DNA of 64,000 nucleotides from Thermodesulfobacteriota bacterium (GCA_039715015.1 JBDLIE010000005.1:32001-96000); one strand, 5' to 3'. Positions 10,103 to 30,695 are shown, counted from the stretch's first letter. A program made the numbers and translations. The notes: generated from the letters alone by a model not told the origin.

Positions 10103-10690
10103 CTAGTTGTTTATGACCCGGTAATAACGGCCATGGGCACAGCTTTTACAAAGGGTTTTCCCGTCTGTTTCTACTTCGCGGCAATCCTGTACCCAATCAC
10201 CGCATCCGTCACATTGCACCCTTTTTAAAGGGCGGCCAGGCATATCTGCAGGGGGAATGGTGATCTCTACCTCTTCAATCTTAAAGAGCTCATCTTCAGG
10301 CATGACACGGTAGGCCTCAAGCTGTTGTTTATACTTTCCCTCCGCCTCCGGCACATATTTCTTGGCAAGCTCCCGGGATTCCTCCCGTGCGGTAATGCGT
10401 ACGGCTTTACCTGTCTCTAAGTTCACAAAGGTAGCAGCCATGATTCCATAATCCAGCCATTTCAAAGAGCGTTTGCCCAGGGTGCAACCAGTAACTGTCT
10501 GGATGGCATCGGTGGCGCAACGGTCGATTTCAACGAGGACATAAAACTTTTTGCGCTCACTGCCCTTGGGGTCTGAAATATCTATTTCCCTAAGACCAAT
10601 CATCGACATGCGAACGCCGATGACCTGTCCGGCACAGACATGGCCGTGGATGGTGGTGGAGTGTTCAAGAAGTTCTTCGAAAGTCTGCAT
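10103..10690 (-). CDS. FmdE-family protein with C-terminal Zn finger
   Basis: HGHVCAG, EIDRCATDAIQ...GCTLGK, terminal CDGC...CKSC. Confidence 0.88.
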   Translation of the reverse strand: MQTFEELLEHSTTIHGHVCAGQVIGVRMSMIGLREIDISDPKGSERKKFYVLVEIDRCATDAIQTVTGCTLGKRSLKWLDYGIMAATFVNLETGKAVRITAREESRELAKKYVPEAEGKYKQQLEAYRVMPEDELFKIEEVEITIPPADMPGRPLKRVQCDGCGDWVQDCREVETDGKTLCKSCAHGRYYRVINN

Positions 10691-11049: not shown

Positions 11050-12240
11050 TTACTCTTCTTTAATGGCCAGTAAAGGCTCAAGGCGGGCTAAACGGATCAC
11101 CGGCAGGGCGGCGCCGGCAAGACAAATCAAAACACCAGCCAGGCATCCCAAGGCGCTGATAATGATGTTTTGGCTCGATGTTAAAGAGGTAGCGCCTAGG
11201 CTGGTGAGGAGATTAAAGTCCTCAGCCAGAAAATAGATGAGATAATGGCCGACAAATATACCCAGGCAGGCACCAATAATACTGATGAAGAATGCCTCAC
11301 TGAGAAAAAGAGAAATGACGTGTGATTTCTGGGCACCAAGGGCGCGTAGGATACCAACCTCACGCCGCCGTTCGTTTGCCAGAGCGGAAAAGGTGGACCA
11401 AGCCAGAAGAATGGCCAGAAGTGATGAGATTAGAATAGTTATGGTGAATACTCGGACAATATCGCGCAAGGTTGTGCGAACATCTGCGCCGATATTACCG
11501 CGGGTCATAATGCCAACACGTGGATTGATATCACGGATTTTTGCCACCACCCGCTCGACATCAAAGCCTTCTTTGACTTTGAGAAAGACAATGGATATCT
11601 GGCCACGTTTATAGCTACCTAAAGCCTCATCAGTGATATCGTCAAGGTCTTCAAGGCGCATGAACAGGCCGTGGTCAAGACCGGTACCGGTGACCTCAAG
11701 ATGATCAACCATCTTTATTTCATTGCCGAAAAGGGCCATTGTGTCGATGAGCCCCAGGTATTCCCAGACATAATTGCCCACATAGACCTCTCCTTTCTTG
11801 AGAGGGGTAGGGGTTTTTATCCATGGTGTAATGACAAAATCTTCGTCTTGATTAAAGGCGATGATTTGGCCTTCGATGATAGAACAGCAACCGGAATCTA
11901 AGGTGTTAAGGTAGACATGGTAGGTGGAGTCGGCGATCTCATCCATTCCCTTTGTTTCATCATAAATCCCTCTATCCATGTAGAAGATCTTTTCCTTGCT
12001 CTCAAGGATGAACTCTTCAGCCATGGACTTTGCCTTGGAGGGCACAATAACAATATCGGCTCCCAGCCGTTTTGTCGCCTGGTCAAGGTCCTCCTGCACA
12101 GCCTGCTTAAAGAGCAGAGCGAAAACGAGAAGGGCCACGAGAAGGGCCACGGCAATAACCAGGACGATATTGCGAAATAATTTACGGGAAAATCCCTTCC
12201 AGGCAACAAGGGGAAGGGGAAGTCGACCAGGGTTGGACAT
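11050..12240 (-). CDS. FtsX/MacB/LolE-type ABC permease
   Basis: RLGADIVIVP, SGCC in the periplasmic loop, NERRREVGILRALGA. Confidence 0.88.
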   Translation of the reverse strand: MSNPGRLPLPLVAWKGFSRKLFRNIVLVIAVALLVALLVFALLFKQAVQEDLDQATKRLGADIVIVPSKAKSMAEEFILESKEKIFYMDRGIYDETKGMDEIADSTYHVYLNTLDSGCCSIIEGQIIAFNQDEDFVITPWIKTPTPLKKGEVYVGNYVWEYLGLIDTMALFGNEIKMVDHLEVTGTGLDHGLFMRLEDLDDITDEALGSYKRGQISIVFLKVKEGFDVERVVAKIRDINPRVGIMTRGNIGADVRTTLRDIVRVFTITILISSLLAILLAWSTFSALANERRREVGILRALGAQKSHVISLFLSEAFFISIIGACLGIFVGHYLIYFLAEDFNLLTSLGATSLTSSQNIIISALGCLAGVLICLAGAALPVIRLARLEPLLAIKEE

Positions 12241-12259
12241 GTGAAGACCTTAAAGTACA

Positions 12260-12297
12260 AATAAAGAAAGGGAGACCTGAGTCTCCCTTTCTTTATT
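12260..12297. terminator. 17-bp perfect hairpin between the propeller gene and the permease
   Basis: aataaagaaagggagac-ctga-gtctccctttctttatt. Confidence 0.7.
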
Positions 12298-12319
12298 CAA
12301 TTATGGTGAAAAGGTTACT

Positions 12320-13468
12320 CTATTTCTTATACTCTGCATCCAAACCACAGAGTACAGCATGAACACCGTCTTCACCAGCGCCAATCTCTTCATCATGGCA
12401 GGCAAGACATACGGAGGTCGCTTTGCCGACGAATTTCTTGGCCTTCACATCATAGAGCTTGAGCTGACCGTCCATCAGATACTCATCTGGAGCAGGCTTA
12501 GTACGATCCTGGCAGTCCTCAGCAAAGATGGCCTTGGTCCTGGAGGTAACGACAACGTACTTGTCATCCGGGGTGAACATGGCGTCATGGGTCTCTTCCA
12601 GAGGAGGCATGGTCTCGGCATCAATGGTTTCCAAGGTGTTGGCATCAATAAGGAACATGATGTCACCGGTGGCATTGGCAATCATGGAAGAATCGTTTGA
12701 CCAGTACTGCCTAAAAGAAATAGTCTTCTTCTTGTTGCCGTCAGCAACGCCAGAGGCAAGGAGCTTTACTTTGCCTTTTTCAAGGGCTTTGGCATCGAGC
12801 ATTTTCAGGTGCAGTTTGCCGACACCGGTGCCGTAGCTGGCAAGAGAGGAGGAATCACTCTCGTTAATTGTGATGAGCATCTTGCTCATGTCTGGAGAGG
12901 TGGTGCCGTGAAAGTATTTATAGGGTACTTTGGGGTCAGCCTCAGAGCCTTCCAGGAAAACACGATGTTTGATCTTGAGATCTTTTTTGGTAAATACATC
13001 GATGTAGGCAGGGTTTGACATGGTGATGGGCATGAAATAATCTTTGGTCTGCCCTGATGCGCAGTACATCTTCTTGGTAACCTTGACTTGCTTCGGGGTG
13101 GGAACATTAACGTCCATGATAACCTCACCGGTGCGCAGATCTGTTTTGCCAACGTGGGTTTTGCCAGTGGCTGGGTCAAGTTTATAGGTAGACCAATACA
13201 TGGTGTTACGGTCTTTATAATCGATACGGGCATCGTGGACTGGATGGGACTCGCCATCACCAATATCAATTTTAGTAAGCTCATTACAGGTAATGGGGGA
13301 CTCTTTAGCTGGGTCTATGGTACAAACGGCCTTGGCAAAATGGCCACCCATGGCTGCTACATAAAAAGTAGCTTCGTAGGTTTTGCCTGCCATGGCGCCA
13401 GTTGCAATTCCTGCAGTGAGAGCAGTAGCGGTTACAGTGCTCAGCAATGCCTTTTTGGAAATCTTCAT
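12320..13468 (-). CDS. Secreted His/Cys-rich beta-propeller-like protein with one CxxCH motif (unknown function)
   Basis: Start re-called to ATG 13468 (GAGGAG RBS upstream); Sec signal MKISKKALLSTVTATALTAGIATGAMA; propeller-like SPDMSK and FTPDDKY turns; VCLACH near the C-terminus. Confidence 0.7.
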   Translation of the reverse strand: MKISKKALLSTVTATALTAGIATGAMAGKTYEATFYVAAMGGHFAKAVCTIDPAKESPITCNELTKIDIGDGESHPVHDARIDYKDRNTMYWSTYKLDPATGKTHVGKTDLRTGEVIMDVNVPTPKQVKVTKKMYCASGQTKDYFMPITMSNPAYIDVFTKKDLKIKHRVFLEGSEADPKVPYKYFHGTTSPDMSKMLITINESDSSSLASYGTGVGKLHLKMLDAKALEKGKVKLLASGVADGNKKKTISFRQYWSNDSSMIANATGDIMFLIDANTLETIDAETMPPLEETHDAMFTPDDKYVVVTSRTKAIFAEDCQDRTKPAPDEYLMDGQLKLYDVKAKKFVGKATSVCLACHDEEIGAGEDGVHAVLCGLDAEYKK

Positions 13469-13656
13469 TTTTTCTCCTCGCTTGAGTGTTGTCGCGATCT
13501 CTGTTGCAATCGCATTAACATTTGGATTCTGGAACAATGTGTCACTGGTAAAGGGATCAGAGAAGCCCTGTAGCAGCAGGTTTTACGCTCTCTTTTAGAC
13601 CTCTTTGGTTTTTCTCCAGTTACAGGAAAATCATGTTGCCAGAAAAAATACTTTGT

Positions 13657-13693
13657 GTGACAATCTGTCCCTAGTGTGACAAATTGTCACACT
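13657..13693. promoter_or_regulatory. Tandem RegA/PrrA-like boxes in a divergent promoter
   Basis: GTGACaatctGTCCC (13657-13671) and GTGACaaattGTCAC (13676-13690), the second inside the palindrome agtgtgacaa-a-ttgtcacact. Confidence 0.55.
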
Positions 13694-13824
13694 GGAAGGT
13701 TCCGAAAATAAATGATTGCGAAAAATTTGCAACAAGAAAAAAGAGAAAAACCCTCCCTTTTCTTGTTTAAAGTTGATTCCTGTTAACGGGGTTATGATCA
13801 GTGGCAGGGGCTGGGAAAATAAAA

Positions 13825-14505
13825 ATGTATATCGAATGTGAAAACCTGAACAAAAAATACAAGTCTGAAGGGGCTGTTTTAACAGCAGTTGATCAAGTCA
13901 ATCTTCAGGTGAACAAAGGGGAGTTCGTCGTCATCTTGGGTCATTCCGGTTCTGGAAAGACGACGCTTCTATCATTAATTGGCGGATTAACCAAGCCCGA
14001 TGGCGGCACGGTTAGAATCGACAATATTGATAATTGGCAGCAGGCTGATGATGAGCTTGCTGTGATGCGCAATAAGAAGATCGGCTTTATTTTTCAATTT
14101 GCCAGTCTTATCCCCACCCTGACTGTTCTCGAGAATATTCTTTTACCTCTTTCCTTCACAAGCGACCCGCAAGGGGACAGGCAATATGCATTGGACCTTC
14201 TGGAGAGAGTCGGCCTCAGTGGCCGGCAGGATGATCTTCCCGGCCAATTGTCAGGCGGCCAGCAACGCCGTGTCGCCATTGCCCGTTCTTTTATAAATCG
14301 CCCAGATATTATTTTAGCAGACGAACCCACAGGTGATCTGGATGAAGAGACTGAGAAAGAAATTCTTGCCATTTTTAAGGATTTTAATAAACAGGGGATC
14401 ACTTTTCTTGTTGTAAGCCATAATAAAGATCTGGCTCTCAGTCAGGACAGACCGCGTATGTTAACCATGAAAAACGGCTCTTTAGCTGAGACTTCTTCTC
14501 CATGA
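13825..14505 (+). CDS. LolD/MacB-type ABC ATP-binding protein
   Basis: GHSGSGKT, LSGGQQRRVAIAR, ADEPTGDLD; start re-called to ATG 13825. Confidence 0.92.
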   Translation: MYIECENLNKKYKSEGAVLTAVDQVNLQVNKGEFVVILGHSGSGKTTLLSLIGGLTKPDGGTVRIDNIDNWQQADDELAVMRNKKIGFIFQFASLIPTLTVLENILLPLSFTSDPQGDRQYALDLLERVGLSGRQDDLPGQLSGGQQRRVAIARSFINRPDIILADEPTGDLDEETEKEILAIFKDFNKQGITFLVVSHNKDLALSQDRPRMLTMKNGSLAETSSP

Positions 14506-14996
14506 AAAAACTTTTTTTATTGTGCACCCTGTTGCTATGTTTAGCCGCTTGCGGGCAGTCCCAACAGGCTCCAGAGCTGCAGGTCGGTGGACCAGCTCCT
14601 GGATTTTCCGGCCTTGATATTTCAGGTAATTCCTTTGACCTGGCTGATTTTTCTGGAAAGCCGGTTATTATTCGTTTTTGGTCAACTGAGTGTAATTACT
14701 GCCGGGCAGACACCCCTGTTTTTAATAAGTTGTACGCGAAATATCACGACAAGGGCCTACAAATTGCTTATATTAATACATTGTCAAGTTTGCCCCAGGT
14801 TAAAGAGTTTGTTGCTGATCTTGCTATTACATTCCCTGTCCTCATGGACGAGGATGGAACCATGGCGCGTAGCTACCAGGTGAAGCTTGTTCCCCAAACA
14901 ATAATTATCGATAAAAAACACAACATTGCTGCTGCTATTCTTGGCGGTGTCAGTGAAAAGGAAGTTATGGATTTGCTTCAGGAGGATTTGAAATAA
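14502..14996 (+). CDS. TlpA/ResA-like thiol-disulfide oxidoreductase lipoprotein
   Basis: Lipobox LAAC; FWSTECNYC (CxxC); VPQTIIID. Confidence 0.88.
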   Translation: MKKLFLLCTLLLCLAACGQSQQAPELQVGGPAPGFSGLDISGNSFDLADFSGKPVIIRFWSTECNYCRADTPVFNKLYAKYHDKGLQIAYINTLSSLPQVKEFVADLAITFPVLMDEDGTMARSYQVKLVPQTIIIDKKHNIAAAILGGVSEKEVMDLLQEDLK

Positions 14997-14997
14997 A

Positions 14998-15501
14998 ATG
15001 AGAACTTTGAAAAACATCTTTGTGGTCCTGTGTCTTGCTTTCTTGGCCTCTTCTGCTGTTGCCGTTGCCGAACCATTAGAAAATATTGCCGATGATAGCC
15101 GTTGCAATGTCTGTGGTATGTTTGTTGCCAAGTATCCCAATTGGCTCACCCAGGTTCATAGAGCCGATGGACAGGTTTCCCTTTTTGACGGGGTCAAGGA
15201 TATGATGGTCTTTTATTTCAACCCAGAGAAATATGGTGCCAAGGCAGACACTTTAAAGGATATTTGGGTAAAAGATTATTACACCATGAATTGGCTTGAT
15301 GGCCGTAAAGCCCTCTACGTTGTTGGTAGTGATGTTCATGGCCCCATGGGCCACGAATTCATCCCCTTTGCCAGTCATGAAGCAGCGGCATCTTTCTTAA
15401 AAGATCATTCTGGTAAAGCCATCCTTGCCTTTGATGATATTACCTCTGAAAAGGTGGAATCCATGCGCATGGGTATGAAGATGAAAATGAAGATGAAATA
15501 G
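14998..15501 (+). CDS. nosL: NosL-family copper chaperone
   Basis: Signal peptide; RCNVCGM, FDGVKD, VVGSDVHGPMG; Met-rich tail. Confidence 0.85.
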   Translation: MRTLKNIFVVLCLAFLASSAVAVAEPLENIADDSRCNVCGMFVAKYPNWLTQVHRADGQVSLFDGVKDMMVFYFNPEKYGAKADTLKDIWVKDYYTMNWLDGRKALYVVGSDVHGPMGHEFIPFASHEAAASFLKDHSGKAILAFDDITSEKVESMRMGMKMKMKMK

Positions 15502-15527
15502 AGTGCAGCCATCATCTCCATCTTCCT

Positions 15528-15812
15528 GTGCTCTTAATGCGTCCATCCTCCCTTTTTTTCTTTGTTCTTTTCGCCCTGGCCGTTACTACTGTAACGCTAG
15601 CGGCCCATGGCCGTCATCGTGCCCTTAAGGAGAAGGACGCATATTTTGTGCGCGATAGCCTGACCAGAGAACTTGGTTTAACCGACCTATGTCTGGCCAC
15701 CGAAGCTCGTTACACCAGACATCCTGCCCTGAGTGATGATCTTGCCCCTTTTATGGATTATCCAGCAGCCCTGGAGCATTTTCCCTCAGGTCTCTTCTGG
15801 GCGCCCAAATGA
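15528..15812 (+). CDS. Small hypothetical membrane-anchored protein
   Basis: N-terminal hydrophobic helix; LGLTDLCLATEARYTRHP; stop overlaps the next start (ATGA). Confidence 0.6.
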   Translation: MLLMRPSSLFFFVLFALAVTTVTLAAHGRHRALKEKDAYFVRDSLTRELGLTDLCLATEARYTRHPALSDDLAPFMDYPAALEHFPSGLFWAPK

Positions 15813-16990
15813 AAGAATTCCTTGAAAAACAGACCAATATTCTTGATTATGCCCTGGCTTCGCTCTGGCGCCGGAAGGGGAAGAATCTTAGTGTTTTTTG
15901 TGTCTTTACCCTGGTTATCTTTCTCTTAGCCTCTTTCCAGTTTTTAACACGATCTCTGTTGGTGTCTGCTGCTGATACTTTGCAGCAGACACCCGAAATC
16001 ACCGTCCAACGCATGGTTGCCGGTCGTCAGGAAACAATCCCTGTTGCCTATGGTGAAAAGATTAAAGCAATCTTCGGGGTGACTAGGGTCAGTGAAAGAG
16101 TGTGGGGCTATAAATTTAACGAAGTAACCGGCGCCAACCTTACTGTGATGGCTCTTGCCGACTTTTCCAAAGACAATCAGGCTGCTCTTGCTGAGGGGCG
16201 TTTTTTGGTTCAGGGAGATGCTGGCCAGGCCCTTATTGGTCAAGGGGTTTTAAAAGATCTGGGTTTGGGGAAACGGCGCAGCTTTTCTTTTTTTAGACCA
16301 GATCTCACCCTGAAATCGTTTTCAGTCAGCGGTATTTTTGCTCCTGCAACCGATATACTGACCTATGATTTGGTTGTCATGAATATCGGCGATGGCCGTG
16401 ATCTTTTCGGACTCCAGCCTGATGTGGCCACTGATCTTCTTGTCGAAGTTGGAAACCCTGTGGAGATTGATACCATTGCTAAGAAAATCTCAACGATCTT
16501 GCCAGATACCAGAGTGGTTACCCGTCCGCAGATTTTAATGACATACCAGGCTGTTTTTAGCTGGCGTTCAGGTTTTGCTTCAGTGTGTCTGTTAACAGCT
16601 CTTGCTGCCTTTATTATCTTGGCCTGGGACAAGGCCTCCGGCATGTCGCCTGAAGAACGGCGGGAAATTTCTATTCTGAAAATCCTTGGTTGGCAGACCC
16701 CTGATGTTTTAGCAGTTCGGTTCTGGGAAAGTTTTGCCATGGCACTGGTTGCCTTTGTCTCTGGTAATATTCTGGCCTATATCCATATTGGTTATTTCCA
16801 TGCAGCCCTTTTTCGTTCGGTGATGATGGGTTGGTCTGTGCTCCGTCCCACTCTTGATATTGTTCCGGCTGTATATTCTACGGACCTTTTCTTGCTCTTT
16901 TCTCTCTCCGTGCTTCCTTATTTGGCAGCCACGGTAATCCCTGCCTGGCGCTGTGCCTCAGTTGCCACTGATTCTGCGCTGAGGGGGTAA
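15809..16990 (+). CDS. FtsX/LolE-type ABC permease
   Basis: One plus three TM topology; EERREISILKILGW. Confidence 0.85.
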   Translation: MKEFLEKQTNILDYALASLWRRKGKNLSVFCVFTLVIFLLASFQFLTRSLLVSAADTLQQTPEITVQRMVAGRQETIPVAYGEKIKAIFGVTRVSERVWGYKFNEVTGANLTVMALADFSKDNQAALAEGRFLVQGDAGQALIGQGVLKDLGLGKRRSFSFFRPDLTLKSFSVSGIFAPATDILTYDLVVMNIGDGRDLFGLQPDVATDLLVEVGNPVEIDTIAKKISTILPDTRVVTRPQILMTYQAVFSWRSGFASVCLLTALAAFIILAWDKASGMSPEERREISILKILGWQTPDVLAVRFWESFAMALVAFVSGNILAYIHIGYFHAALFRSVMMGWSVLRPTLDIVPAVYSTDLFLLFSLSVLPYLAATVIPAWRCASVATDSALRG

Positions 16991-16994
16991 GTTC

Positions 16995-17678
16995 ATGATT
17001 GTTGAGCTCGAGGATATTGTTAAGATTTATAACCAGGGTGAGGCTAATGAAGTAACGGCCCTTGAGCAGGTTGATCTCACCATTGAGCATGGCTCCATGG
17101 TCTGTCTCAAGGGGCCCAGTGGCTCGGGGAAATCGACACTGCTTTCCATTATTGGCTGTATTTATCCGCCTACCAGCGGCAGGGCCGTTATAGGCGGCAA
17201 GCAGTTGTCACGTCTGCCAGATCGTTTTTTGACCATCCACCGCCGGCAGACCATCGGCTTTATCTTTCAACAATTCAATATTTTGCCGAAGCTTTCTGTT
17301 TTTGAGAATATTGTTCTGCCTCTTCTGCCTTTGGGGGTCTCTCCTGCAAAGCGAAGAGCCATGGCTGAACCTCTGCTTGAACGTTTTGCCATTAAGCATC
17401 GTCAGAATTTTCCTGCCGGCTCTATTTCTGGCGGTGAACTGCAAAGAGTCGCAATTGCCAGGGCCTTAATTAATAATCCGCCTATCATCATTGCCGATGA
17501 ACCCACAGCACATCTTGATAGCAACCTTACCAGGGGTTTTCTGCAAACAATGATGGAGCTGAAGGAGGAGGGGAAAACCATCATTATTGCCTCCCACGAC
17601 CCGCTTGTCACCGAAGATGCCAGAGTGGACAAGATGTTTAATGTTCTGGATGGCAGGGTGAGCCAGGATGTTTCTTAA
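16995..17678 (+). CDS. LolD-type ABC ATP-binding protein
   Basis: GPSGSGKS, ISGGELQRVAIARAL, ADEPTAHLD. Confidence 0.92.
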   Translation: MIVELEDIVKIYNQGEANEVTALEQVDLTIEHGSMVCLKGPSGSGKSTLLSIIGCIYPPTSGRAVIGGKQLSRLPDRFLTIHRRQTIGFIFQQFNILPKLSVFENIVLPLLPLGVSPAKRRAMAEPLLERFAIKHRQNFPAGSISGGELQRVAIARALINNPPIIIADEPTAHLDSNLTRGFLQTMMELKEEGKTIIIASHDPLVTEDARVDKMFNVLDGRVSQDVS

Positions 17679-18678
17679 CCCATGGAGTCTAGCCCTGTGT
17701 CTGCTTAGCGGACTCAGTATCTTTTTGATTGGGGTGGCCTGTAAAACGGCGATCAGGGTCATCCGCCAGTGGAACCCGGCCGCTGATAGCCAACAACAGA
17801 TTGAGCTTGAATCGGAGATTTGGCTGTCATCCACCCTGGTCCAGTATGGGCTTGGCTTTCAGATTATTTCCATGTTTCTCTACGTTCTGGCTGCAGATTC
17901 TTTTGCCCAGATGCTTTCCGGGGCCATGTGTGCCACCGGGTCTCTGCTGGCCAACGATTATGGCATTCCGCTTCTTGTTGTCAAAATTGCCGGCATGTTC
18001 CTGTACGGCTTGTGGATTGTTCTTCATCAGCTCGATATCAGCAGTGAGGAGTATCCTTTAGTACGGGTTAAATATGTCCTCCTTCTTTTTTTGCTGCCGC
18101 TGCTTGTCAGTGACACAGTCCTGTTGATTCTCTACCTGGCTGGATTGGAACCAGATATCATTACATCGTGCTGTGCAATTATTTTTGATGAAGGGGCCGG
18201 GGGCACGGTTCAGAATCTTTTCGGTGGACGGGGAGGGGAGGGGAGTTTGGCCTTTTATTACGGCTGGGCGATGCTTCTTTTCTGTCTTGGTTTTCTTGCC
18301 TGGTGGTGGCAGAAATTGGCCGCTTATCTTATCTACGGGATTGGTGTTGCCTTTTTTGGTGTTCTGGCACTGGAGACTCTCATCACTGTATTTTCATCGT
18401 ATATATACGCCATGCCCTTCCATAATTGCCCTTTTTGCATACTGAAGAAAGAGTATGGATATATTGGTTTTTTTATCTACATCCCCCTCTTTGTTGCTGT
18501 TTTCTGTGGCATCACTCCCATGCTTCTTGAGCCGTGTAAAAGAAAGAGTTCCATTGCCAGTACAGTAGCAACCATGCAGAAAAAACTTGTGGTTGTCTCC
18601 CTGGCCTCTCTGGCATTTTATGTCACCCTCTCGTCCTATCATTATCTTGCCTATACCCTGTTGGGAGGGGAGGGGTAG
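17668..18678 (+). CDS. Polytopic membrane protein with Cys motifs (unknown function)
   Basis: About eight hydrophobic segments; GAMCATG, TSCC, HNCPFC. Confidence 0.75.
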   Translation: MFLNPWSLALCLLSGLSIFLIGVACKTAIRVIRQWNPAADSQQQIELESEIWLSSTLVQYGLGFQIISMFLYVLAADSFAQMLSGAMCATGSLLANDYGIPLLVVKIAGMFLYGLWIVLHQLDISSEEYPLVRVKYVLLLFLLPLLVSDTVLLILYLAGLEPDIITSCCAIIFDEGAGGTVQNLFGGRGGEGSLAFYYGWAMLLFCLGFLAWWWQKLAAYLIYGIGVAFFGVLALETLITVFSSYIYAMPFHNCPFCILKKEYGYIGFFIYIPLFVAVFCGITPMLLEPCKRKSSIASTVATMQKKLVVVSLASLAFYVTLSSYHYLAYTLLGGEG

Positions 18679-18730: not shown

Positions 18731-19258
18731 TCAGAGGGTGGGGGGGAATTTTTGGAGTTTGCGCTGCAGGGTGCGGCGATGAATACCCAGCTTCTTAGCG
18801 GCCTGTGAAATATTATTGTTGCAGTCGCTTAAAACACGGCTGATATGCTCCCACTCAACCCGGGCAAGGGATGGAGCACTGATGCTGTCATCTTCCATTT
18901 CACGGAGATCTTCCGATTCAAAGGCAGCTATAATATCTTCAACTTCAGCAGGTTTGGTGAGATAGCCGATTGCTCCAAGCTTAATCGCCTTGGTGGCTGT
19001 GGCAATGGAGCCATAACCCGTCAAAACTACGGCTCGTAGATCGGGGTGGTGCCGCATGCCAGTCCGGATGACGTCAAGTCCTGACTTCCCTTCCATCTTG
19101 AGATCCACAACGGCAAAGGCGGGCTTGTGTCGCGCAATGATCTCCACAGCCCCGATGTAGTTACTCGCAGTCTCTACGTCGAAGCCACGGCGCTCTAGGG
19201 CCTTGGATAAACGGTTCCGGAAAATATCCTCGTCATCAACAAGTAAAATGGTCGGCAT
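18731..19258 (-). CDS. regA: RegA/PrrA/ActR-family response regulator
   Basis: VVLTGYGSIATA, SLARVEWEHI, NISQAAKKLGIHRRTLQRKL. Confidence 0.92.
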   Translation of the reverse strand: MPTILLVDDEDIFRNRLSKALERRGFDVETASNYIGAVEIIARHKPAFAVVDLKMEGKSGLDVIRTGMRHHPDLRAVVLTGYGSIATATKAIKLGAIGYLTKPAEVEDIIAAFESEDLREMEDDSISAPSLARVEWEHISRVLSDCNNNISQAAKKLGIHRRTLQRKLQKFPPTL

Positions 19259-19263
19259 GGTTC

Positions 19264-20619
19264 TTACACCTCCAAATCAGAGTCTGTTTGGGTGGCTAAT
19301 GATTTGCTGAAAGAGATAGTTATAGTTGTTCCTGTGTCTTCATGGCTTTCAATATCGAGGGCCCCTTCGAGCTGGGTTGCCAACGATTTTGCCAGAAAAA
19401 GGCCAAGTCCCATACCCTTGCCAACAGGTTTTGTGGTGAAGAAAGGGTCTGTCGCCTGTTCAGCAACTTCTTGTGACATACCACAACCTTGATCAGTTAC
19501 TATGAAATAAATGTACTCGCCATCCTCTTTACATTCAAGGGTGATTTCTCCGTCAGGCGGGCTTGCATCTGCTGCATTGGATAACAGGCCCTTTAATGAC
19601 CAAGAGACAGCATGAGAGGGGACATGGAGTTGTTTGCTTGGAAGCATATTGTTTACAACAAGGTTTTGAGAGATATTGCCAAGCAATTCTCGAGCGCTTT
19701 CGATGAGTTCATCAGTGGTACTGGGAGTATGTTTTTCCCCTTGGATAGCGCCGGCATCTGCAGACATTTGAAAGAGGATCTTTTTGCAACGGTTGGTTTG
19801 TTCCCGAATGAGCTGGGCGTCATCTAAGAGATCTTTGTCATAGATTTCATTCTCACAATGATAGACCATTTCCCCTGATGCCAGACCAATGGTGGCGAGG
19901 GGGGTGGAGAGTTCATGGGCAGCCCCTGCAGCCAGGGTGGCAAGAGCGCTAAGCTTGTCGTTTTGCAGCTTTTCCTGGCGCAGCTTGGCAATGGTACGAT
20001 GATAGTCCCTGAGGGATTGTTGGATGCGTGAAGCGAAAAAGGTGATCAAAACGGCACTAACAGCATAGGCAAACCACATACCCTGTAGATGAAGATCCAT
20101 ATTAAAATTAGTGATATTGCAAACCTGCTGAACCTCCTGACTTGCCCCAGCTCCACTTTGTTTGAGAAGTGAGGGCAGAAACATGCCCCCATAAGAAAGA
20201 ATTGTAGAGATGGAAAGGCCCCAGGCAAGAAGAGATGATAACAAGATGGCGCCAAGGGTGATATGGACCAGATAGATAAAGGTAAATGGGTTCATTGTGC
20301 CGCCAGTAATATAGAGCAACCCTGTGAGAAGGATTATGTCGCCATATAAAGTCAGAGGCAGAAGATATTCAGGTGGTGGCTTTTGGTGGCTGTGAAGACG
20401 AAGAGCAAGGGCGGTGTTGGTAATAATTTCAACAATAATTACAGTACTGACGGCAAAGATAGGAAGGTCAAGATGGAAAAAGAATGAACCAATGGCAATG
20501 GTGAGAATCTGGCCAGCAACGGCCCACCATCGCAATTTGACTAACCAGTTAAGGCCAATACTCCGCGTATCATGGAGATTTTGTTGTGATTCTAAGCTGG
20601 TAAAAAGTGAGTGATGCAT
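19264..20619 (-). CDS. regB: RegB/PrrB/ActS-family sensor histidine kinase
   Basis: LRWWAVAGQ, TGGTMNPF (quinone-site GGxxNPF), AAGAAHELSTPLATI, RCKKIL redox Cys, GMGLGLFL. Confidence 0.92.
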   Translation of the reverse strand: MHHSLFTSLESQQNLHDTRSIGLNWLVKLRWWAVAGQILTIAIGSFFFHLDLPIFAVSTVIIVEIITNTALALRLHSHQKPPPEYLLPLTLYGDIILLTGLLYITGGTMNPFTFIYLVHITLGAILLSSLLAWGLSISTILSYGGMFLPSLLKQSGAGASQEVQQVCNITNFNMDLHLQGMWFAYAVSAVLITFFASRIQQSLRDYHRTIAKLRQEKLQNDKLSALATLAAGAAHELSTPLATIGLASGEMVYHCENEIYDKDLLDDAQLIREQTNRCKKILFQMSADAGAIQGEKHTPSTTDELIESARELLGNISQNLVVNNMLPSKQLHVPSHAVSWSLKGLLSNAADASPPDGEITLECKEDGEYIYFIVTDQGCGMSQEVAEQATDPFFTTKPVGKGMGLGLFLAKSLATQLEGALDIESHEDTGTTITISFSKSLATQTDSDLEV

Positions 20620-20751: not shown

Positions 20752-20766
20752 GCGACAATTTGCCAC
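20752..20766. promoter_or_regulatory. RegA-like box upstream of regB (copy 1)
   Basis: GCGACaatttGCCAC, identical to 30681-30695. Confidence 0.6.
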
Positions 20767-30680: not shown

Positions 30681-30695
30681 GCGACAATTTGCCAC
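30681..30695. promoter_or_regulatory. RegA-like box upstream of the torD-molybdoenzyme operon (copy 2)
   Basis: GCGACaatttGCCAC; flanks shared with 20749-20791 (tatgcgacaatttgccacatttt...aacttgtgtt). Confidence 0.6.

Follow-up and report, generated by a model that had tools for sequence, protein, structure and literature searches.

Two separable modules, a NosL-containing cassette and an orphan CXXCH propeller protein with its ABC partner, in a divergent gene cluster of a Thermodesulfobacteriota bacterium

The 64,000-nucleotide stretch of Thermodesulfobacteriota DNA analysed here (GCA_039715015.1, JBDLIE010000005.1:32001-96000; hereafter the window) holds, between positions 11050 and 18678, a divergent cluster of nine genes that includes a secreted propeller-like protein and a NosL-family chaperone (Table 1). 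An original prediction, made from the sequence alone, had named these genes and read them as a maturation system for a periplasmic metalloprotein; the open reading frame (ORF) list and family scans place all nine where it had put them. The cluster is composed of two separable modules. The first, M1, comprises the propeller, permease A and ATPase1, and the second, M2, comprises a TlpA-like redoxin, NosL, a small protein, permease B, ATPase2 and a cysteine membrane protein with eight transmembrane segments (8-TM protein). What is new here is the coupling of M2, and of a Cys-Cys permease of the kind found beside DUF4418 proteins, to an orphan propeller predicted to carry haem. In the closest loci, which come from metagenome-assembled genomes of Desulfurivibrionaceae or Desulfobulbaceae, the propeller is 86-93% identical to that of the window.

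Table 1. Genes and features of the divergent cluster and its immediate neighbours, in window coordinates.
Feature	Coordinates	Strand	Family matches and remarks
FmdE-like protein, C-terminal zinc ribbon	10103-10690	-	PF02663 4.2e-37, with zf-dskA_traR
Permease A	11050-12240	-	FtsX 2.3e-22, weak MacB_PCD; SGCC at residues 116-119
Propeller	12320-13468	-	382 amino acids; predicted to be exported; no Pfam or NCBIfam match
Divergent promoter region	13469-13800		Palindrome GTGACAAATTGTCAC at 13676-13690
ATPase1	13801-14505	+	ABC_tran 9.5e-36; LolD/MacB-like; partner of permease A
TlpA/ResA-like redoxin lipoprotein	14502-14996	+	AhpC-TSA 4.7e-26, Redoxin 2.1e-24
NosL-family chaperone	14998-15501	+	PF05573 1.5e-34
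Small protein, 94 amino acids	15528-15812	+	Single N-terminal hydrophobic segment; no family match
Permease B	15809-16990	+	MacB_PCD 2.4e-08, FtsX 5.1e-05
ATPase2, partner of permease B	16995-17678	+	ABC_tran 1.8e-32
8-TM cysteine membrane protein, 336 amino acids	17668-18678	+	GAMC, SCC and HNCPFC motifs; no family match
RegA/RegB-like two-component pair	18731-20619	-	ActR_PrrA 1.8e-55, ActS_PrrB 1.9e-66

The propeller represents an orphan family, with no Pfam match at E ≤ 0.01 and no match in NCBIfam. Its relatives number 851 in a set of 5.8 billion proteins, the best 120 of them being 56-100% identical, and the family is small: at 50% identity, the 1.84 billion representatives contain just 113 clusters of it. 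A signal-like segment at the N-terminus predicts Sec-type export. Across an alignment of 30 family members extending down to 28% identity (A1), invariant positions include G41, D79, H294, C354, C357 and H358, and those conserved in at least 90% of sequences include G42, H43, H78, C136, H187, G188, R253, D295, C374 and G375. Residues 354-358 form a CXXCH motif that is retained in all 30 sequences and that the original prediction overlooked. The protein thereby combines the features by which a c-type cytochrome is recognised: the CXXCH motif, a signal-like N-terminus, and a host genome with cytochrome c assembly genes (two Cytochrom_C_asm genes). Some members of the family are joined to an fn3, Big_2 or caspase domain, and others are tandem propellers of approximately 720-810 amino acids (P0121, P0135, P0186, P0201, L015:4199-6622, L034:9215-11386). 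On a Candidatus Sulfobium contig, a rhodanese-domain gene comes after the tandem propeller.

The AlphaFold2 (AF2) model of the propeller, with a predicted local distance difference test (pLDDT) score of 91.8, contains 24 strands. Its top fold matches are six-bladed propellers of the YWTD, NHL and YVTN types (1npe: VIA Z 26.0, root-mean-square deviation 2.6 Å, 257 residues aligned). NosZ (2iwf, Z 20.2), thiocyanate dehydrogenase (5f75, Z 19.8) and the hydrazine synthase beta subunit (Z 19.9) score lower and are tied with dozens of unrelated propellers; as modelled, the fold identifies the propeller class and nothing further. Searches of the PDB by sequence gave nothing significant with either a single sequence or a profile, the profile E-values against structures of the thiocyanate dehydrogenase/NosZ type being 0.06-0.25. 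Thiocyanate dehydrogenase and NosZ are periplasmic propellers in which histidines of the inner strands surround a central copper site, whereas the protein of the window is six-bladed and conserves far fewer histidines. In the model, H78, C136, H187, R253, H294 and C374 would fall one per blade on the equivalent strand, lining the central channel. The helix bearing CXXCH may lie in a connection running across one face, from the rim inward, with H43 probably in a loop on the same face. Such an arrangement points to a metal site or active site at the centre, with haem c above it.

Permease A has four hydrophobic segments and a 217-residue loop. Its MacB_PCD match falls under the cut-off (21 against 27 bits), and its closest solved relatives are YtrF, MacB, LolE/F and FtsX. 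Both permeases and their ATPases fit the type VII ATP-binding cassette (ABC) family, with an FtsX C-terminal domain, a MacB-like periplasmic domain and a LolD/MacB-like ATPase. Both permeases share with MacB, LolCDE, FtsEX and YtrF the combination of four transmembrane segments and a large periplasmic domain, although the cluster encodes neither a membrane-fusion protein nor an outer-membrane partner. Residues C118 and C119 of permease A, predicted to be periplasmic, are invariant in 16/16 sequences down to 35% identity; to our knowledge, an invariant periplasmic Cys-Cys pair is not a feature of characterised type VII members. Conservation among the orthologues of its partner, ATPase1, begins at residue 11, and the true start of that gene is probably the ATG at 13825 rather than the listed GTG at 13801.

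Gene order was compared across 14 named loci, 18 genome regions and a further set of 40 regions representing roughly one per genus. Permease A follows the propeller directly in 39 of the 40 genus-level loci, with ATPase1 nearby in 35. The permease A profile matched 80 loci on metagenome contigs, and a propeller lies upstream in every one of the 37 in which permease identity is at least 38% and at least 1.4 kb of upstream sequence is available. The components of M2 are less constant neighbours: NosL, the small protein, permease B, ATPase2 and the 8-TM protein each lie beside M1 in 24 of the 40 loci, and TlpA in 28. Two arrangements can be recognised. In type I loci, where the propeller is at least 50% identical to that of the window, permease A and the propeller diverge from a run of ATPase1, TlpA, NosL, small protein, permease B, ATPase2 and membrane protein, such that the ATPase of M1 heads the M2 operon. 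In type II loci (propeller 42-47% identical), propeller, permease A and ATPase1 are colinear and M2 lies elsewhere in the genome; in G278, for example, the two are 600 kb apart (M1 in L029, M2 in L030). A TlpA-like gene adjoins the type II propeller operon in four loci (L056, L057, L063, L068). Each module also stands by itself, M1 in L011, L025 and L032, and M2 in L017-L024, where it is flanked by unrelated housekeeping genes.

More distant relatives of permease A are found in a different setting. Eleven homologues with 26-32% identity have a Cys-Cys pair within the first 200 match residues and no propeller. A DUF4418 gene, encoding a small, four-helix, cysteine-rich protein, lies directly upstream in 6/6 of the distant Cys-Cys permease loci that were scanned with Pfam, and in all six aligned DUF4418-linked permeases, down to 26% identity, the pair falls in the same column as in permease A. 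The position next to the permease that DUF4418 holds in these loci is occupied in the Desulfobulbales by the propeller. There is no DUF4418 gene in the cluster, and a genome search gave no match, though its positive control matched nowhere either. One locus from another family of the phylum (L027) brings the components together, in the order two multihaem cytochromes, propeller, permease A, a His-rich NosL-like protein, DUF4418 and ATPase1. This arrangement implies that the propeller module has acquired NosL and a cysteine membrane protein on more than one occasion. Triads of DUF4418, Cys-Cys FtsX permease and ATPase are widespread (L137, L141, L145, L146, L149, L152). That of L141 adjoins a cupredoxin-like protein and an LVIVD propeller, those of L145 and L152 adjoin FMN_bind and FtrD-like genes together with a second FtsX pair, and a short contig from the human gut (L150) holds a Cys-Cys permease and ATPase.

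Within M2, the redoxin fits a thioredoxin fold with a CxxC motif, exported or anchored; C64xxC67 is present in 20/20 sequences and the lipobox cysteine C17 in 90%, and its scores for the NCBIfam ResA (1e-30) and TlpA models are under the equivalog cut-offs. NosL scores 119.6 bits against a PF05573 cut-off of 24 and matches solved structures (7og7, 7osf; E approximately 1e-9), its C36xxC39GM motif aligning with ECHLCGM and ECHVCGM. C36, C39 and H137 are invariant in 24 orthologues, and the C-terminal tail is Met-rich. Its N-terminus is signal-like with no L-x-[GAS]-C lipobox, C12 being conserved in just 4%. The small protein, which has a conserved C-terminal motif, is itself conserved in 22 loci, and it lies between NosL and permease B without exception in the loci examined. 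Permease B shows no Cys-Cys pair in its alignment and has no solved relative at E ≤ 0.01.

The 8-TM protein and permease A do contain the GAMC, CC, HNCPFC and SGCC motifs that had been pointed out in the original prediction, and the core residues have been strictly kept. In the 8-TM protein, C88, C168, C169, H252 and C254 are invariant in 14/14 sequences (alignment A2), as are M87 and S167; C257 is not. The AF2 model (pLDDT 87) has eight long helices, and the distribution of Lys and Arg suggests that the invariant residues lie in loops on one side, facing the periplasm. No solved relative was found at a Foldseek E ≤ 0.001. Three candidate relationships were rejected: VIA matches with Z up to 16 are to four-helix bundles and cover residues 1-165 only, the likeness to CcsA/CcmF (TM-score 0.35-0.38) is not meaningful, and comparison of the family with one DUF4418 protein gave an hhalign probability of 0.3%.

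The strongest evidence for a role of M2 in the maturation of copper enzymes comes from its position in other genomes. A NosZ profile search of an even phylum sample of 401 genomes gave 13 matches, of which four exceeded the curated cut-off. In two of these four loci (G057, G092), an M2-like cassette (small protein, permease B, ATPase2, membrane protein), whose members share 35-46% identity with their counterparts in the window, lies directly downstream of, and codirectional with, canonical nosZ, after NosL copies and a TlpA-like gene. The third locus (G239) has NosL-like and TlpA-like genes and no cassette within the 20 kb fetched, and the contig of the fourth canonical nosZ spans just 3.7 kb. 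Within the same sample, propeller genes (9/401) and NosZ (13/401) share no genome, an observation that is uninformative because the expected overlap is below one.

We also searched an order-level sample of 401 genomes, which includes the window's own, with profiles of the propeller and the 8-TM protein. The propeller was found in 130 and the 8-TM protein in 199; both occur in 117, the propeller only in 13, the 8-TM protein only in 82, and neither in 189. The 8-TM protein is therefore present in 117 of the 130 propeller genomes, against 82 of the 271 without a propeller, although relatives do not count as independent cases and neighbouring genes come and go as a unit, so that these counts are descriptions rather than tests. 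The co-occurrence includes type II lineages, in which the modules are unlinked. The genomes with the propeller only are a mixed group. In G554 the contig ends within the cassette (L026), and several others are 56-92% complete. In G305, a complete small genome, the propeller is split by a TGA codon (G305:C2:34982-35849) and both NosL and the 8-TM protein are absent, which is consistent with joint decay of the system.

The source genome is 99.99% complete, and the nos searches covered all of it. The lack of nosZ and nosD, which the original prediction had noted for the window, extends to the whole genome, by profile searches for both genes and by a motif search for nosZ. The NosZ clade II profile (TIGR04246) and the NosD profile (TIGR04247) had zero matches, as did nos_propeller (PF18764), although for this last profile the positive control likewise matched nowhere. 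NosZ motif sets, as quoted in bioRxiv 10.64898/2026.07.10.737647, are absent from every six-frame ORF of at least 300 amino acids. The genome also has no COX1 or COX2 of a haem-copper oxidase, and its sole recognisable cuproenzyme is one multicopper oxidase on contig C8. In a genome without NosZ, NosD, COX1 and COX2, few other clients remain for NosL. A second, unrelated NosL-like gene is found on contig C17 (L002:1465-2391); its 308-residue product is exported, has several further CxxC-type motifs and is encoded in an unrelated neighbourhood. PMC13068155 notes the presence of NosL in the absence of NosZ in a different organism, one that does have NosDFY.

The two arms of the cluster diverge from a region that carries a perfect palindrome. 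The corresponding motif, GYGAC-N5-GYCAC, has four matches in the window against 0.22 expected, with sites at 13676-13690, at 20752-20766 upstream of regB, and at 30681-30695; in all, 30 matches occur in 1.26 Mb. It recurs in the propeller/ATPase1 intergenic region of 9/38 divergent loci (L004-L009, L040, L011, L071). The first seven of these are the closest relatives, and a RegBA-like pair of at least 48% identity lies beside the cluster in five of the seven, L004 being too short to reveal one. The window's own RegBA-like proteins score under the curated cut-offs (187.6 against 250 bits and 224.7 against 350 bits) of what are still their best-matching families. This RegA/RegB-like redox pair is the probable regulator of the cluster.

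Our preferred reading, held with slightly more doubt than belief, is that the cluster encodes a periplasmic relay of two stages, which handles a thiol-seeking metal (in all likelihood Cu(I), if any) and ends in a new haem-c beta-propeller protein. M2 would be a portable cassette for loading a chaperone. Within it, TlpA would hold cysteines reduced, the 8-TM protein would offer a periplasm-facing Cys/His/Met site, and the motor-type ABC pair would perform mechanical work outside the membrane. NosL, loaded by M2, would be the metal carrier. M1 would be specific to the client, permease A and ATPase1 receiving the metal on the periplasmic Cys-Cys pair and inserting it into a central pocket of the propeller, possibly lined by H78, H187, H294, C136, C374, D79, D295 and R253. 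The CXXCH motif would bear haem c for electron transfer, H43 being a possible distal ligand, and the RegBA-like redox system would govern the divergent promoter. Such a relay would mirror the sequence from NosL through NosD(FY) to NosZ. In its favour stand the constant pairing of the propeller with the Cys-Cys permease, the invariance of that pair and of CXXCH, the co-occurrence with the 8-TM protein across genomes, the place of ATPase1 in the M2 operon, the TlpA-like genes beside type II operons, the gene order of L027, the position of M2 next to nosZ, the homology of NosL to solved copper chaperones and the scarcity of other clients. Clade III nos clusters, which do without nosDFYL and have a MacB-type ABC component (PMC13685413), offer a precedent.

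Several characteristics of known NosL-NosDFY systems (Pseudomonas stutzeri and S. denitrificans; 7osf-7osj, 7znq, 7og7) are indeed shared by the cluster: a NosL-family chaperone with CxxCGM, an ABC ATPase-permease pair acting in the periplasm, a thiol-disulfide oxidoreductase nearby, and a client, or in the window a candidate client, that is an exported beta-propeller. There are also differences. The cluster has no NosD, its permeases are of the MacB/FtsX type instead of the ABC-2 type of NosY, and it has two ABC systems instead of one. It also has a NosL that lacks a lipoprotein anchor, and two extra components, the 8-TM cysteine protein and the small protein. The candidate client, unlike NosZ, is six-bladed and has neither a cupredoxin domain nor the NosZ copper motifs.

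A number of observations weigh against the relay. The analysis establishes which genes are present, which residues are conserved, the fold class of the propeller, the modular make-up and co-occurrence of the genes, the occurrence of M2 in nos clusters of other genomes and the common operator; the metal, including any binding of it by the propeller, the haem, the direction of transfer, the contacts between proteins and any catalysis are what we infer. Placement of its conserved residues in the central channel was derived from strand order rather than coordinates, and its fold matches, by Foldseek and VIA alike, are generic. It is the pair of permease A and ATPase1, rather than NosL, that constantly accompanies the propeller. 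In 82/401 genomes, M2 is present with no propeller, amid unrelated neighbours, and consequently does not need it. Conversely, G160, which is 100% complete, has an intact M1 with no NosL family gene and no 8-TM protein, so the propeller does not strictly depend on NosL. The multicopper oxidase elsewhere in the window's genome could be the client of NosL, and the lack of independence among related genomes tempers the co-occurrence counts. The claim of a maturation machinery therefore stands in part, upheld by M2 near nosZ and by 117/130 co-occurrence and weakened by the solitary M2 modules and by G160. Similarly, the propeller is the best local client, as had been proposed, yet neither the sole nor an obligate one, and the suggested phylogenetic profiling linked the propeller to the 8-TM protein while leaving 82 genomes with M2 only and 13 with the propeller only.

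Comparison with NosZ sequences weighs on the same side. Clade III NosZ clusters are reportedly the subject of He et al. 2025 (Nature 646:152). According to PMC13477213 and PMC13685413, the clade III, lactonase-type NosZ are Sec-type propeller enzymes of anaerobes, occurring in Desulfobacterota and Nitrospirota, and their clusters are without nosDFYL and reportedly include cytochromes along with ABC components, one of these being of the MacB type. Among the 30 propeller family members, none carries any NosZ motif, except for PHG in one; six of six lactonase-type NosZ-like ORFs of 565-600 amino acids from the same phylum, used as a positive control, hold all five. The three of these six that were scanned with Pfam all combine Lactonase, nos_propeller and Cupredoxin, whereas the window's propeller has no Pfam match to any of the three. 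Profile comparison of the propeller family gave an hhalign probability of 5% against a lactonase-type NosZ-like ORF and of 1% against a Vgb_lyase-type propeller, an accessory of such ORFs. Taken together, the motif failure and profile comparison indicate that the propeller is not a NosZ of any known clade.

The six NosZ-like ORFs come from six genomes of the phylum sample (L155:9642-11444, L157:9820-11562, L160:9145-10911, and L156, L158 and L159). In the three scanned loci, the ORF is followed by cytochrome b, two six-bladed propellers of the Vgb_lyase/SGL type, c-type cytochromes and an ABC-2 system, and L155 additionally holds two TlpA-like genes. No FtsX permease was seen in these three loci; their ABC-2 permeases contrast with the FtsX type at the window.

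The alternative that survives best is that M1 and M2 are unrelated and merely share a neighbourhood and a RegBA redox regulon, a situation we regard as unlikely while taking it seriously. M2 might then provide general periplasmic buffering or detoxification of Cu(I), or serve the multicopper oxidase or other clients, and M1 might be a haem-propeller redox protein whose ABC partner has some other job, for example with a sulfur or nitrogen compound. This explanation follows from the wide independent distribution of M2 and from the intact M1 of G160: the modules are separable in both directions, and a multicopper oxidase is at hand. It would also accommodate the multihaem cytochromes, NrfD-like and rhodanese genes that adjoin the propeller in L027, L025 and L015, respectively, and the restriction of the common operator to the closest relatives and two further loci. 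What it accounts for less readily is the 90% co-occurrence that holds even where the modules are unlinked, the embedding of ATPase1 at the head of the M2 operon, and the presence of NosL-like and DUF4418 genes within a distant propeller operon (L027). The TlpA-like genes beside type II propeller operons, and the Cys-Cys pairs in both permease A and the 8-TM protein, likewise speak for a common function.

Type VII ABC systems work through periplasmic partners, and the propeller might accordingly be no enzyme at all but a periplasmic adaptor or cargo binder of a MacB-type machine, as EnvC is with FtsEX or LolA with LolCDE, its cysteines forming structural disulfides via TlpA. The strict adjacency of propeller and permease A fits this picture, as do the nearest solved relatives of the permease and the fusion of some family members to domains typical of surface proteins. 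We nevertheless judge it very unlikely, as a CXXCH whose histidine, too, is invariant down to 28% identity suits haem better than a disulfide, and each blade places a conserved residue, polar or metal-binding, on one of its strands, as is typical of a central active site. Least credible, and highly improbable in our estimation, is a relay of sulfane sulfur or thiols, in which persulfide or polysulfide would be held on the Cys-Cys pairs and propeller cysteines, with NosL in a minor part: the sulfur-cycling habit of the hosts (Desulfobulbales and relatives), the rhodanese-domain gene after a fused propeller (L015), the NrfD-like gene near another (L025) and the many invariant cysteines predicted to face the periplasm would suit it, but NosL belongs to a copper chaperone family and has its metal motif conserved, the M2 cassette sits in nosZ clusters, and distant Cys-Cys permeases occur in settings unconnected with sulfur, among them the gut metagenome contig and the DUF4418 locus beside a cupredoxin-like gene.

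The metal relay can be extended to a more specific proposal, which we consider distinctly unlikely as a whole. The propeller would be an unrecognised periplasmic haem-copper(-sulfur) enzyme of the Desulfobulbales and a few Nitrospirota-type anaerobes, a counterpart of nitrous-oxide reductase or thiocyanate dehydrogenase. It would be built on a six-bladed scaffold and assembled by a two-motor relay of NosL, the Cys-Cys MacB-type permease and the 8-TM protein. If so, it would be the chief cuproenzyme of organisms that have hardly any other.

Literature searches found no paper on the propeller family, the M2 cassette or DUF4418, and nothing on NosL in Desulfobulbaceae, cable bacteria or sulfur disproportionation. 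Were the relay correct, a copper-chaperone cassette that is common among anaerobes, and apparently has yet to be described, would gain a client open to testing. Motor-type (MacB/FtsX) ABC systems would then be able to substitute for NosDFY in the assembly of periplasmic metal centres, and the bacteria behind the cycling of sulfur in sediments would gain a new haem-metal enzyme. Even if the modules prove unrelated, the propeller and its Cys-Cys permease still represent a conserved unknown system in about one third of the Desulfobulbales genomes searched. A predicted complex between the propeller (residues 29-382) and permease A, represented by its periplasmic domain (residues 46-262), scored 0.21 against a mark of 0.32, a value that weighs neither way.

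The FmdE-like gene that lies 3′ of permease A is a possible accessory gene. It adjoins permease A in close relatives and in 8/40 genus-level loci, and a YihE-type kinase gene is also found beyond permease A. In a distant genome, FmdE is fused to MoCF_biosynth (L028:3703-5367), and the fusion gene lies between a molybdopterin oxidoreductase and a set of FtsX, ATPase and propeller genes, a setting that hints at a second metal theme.

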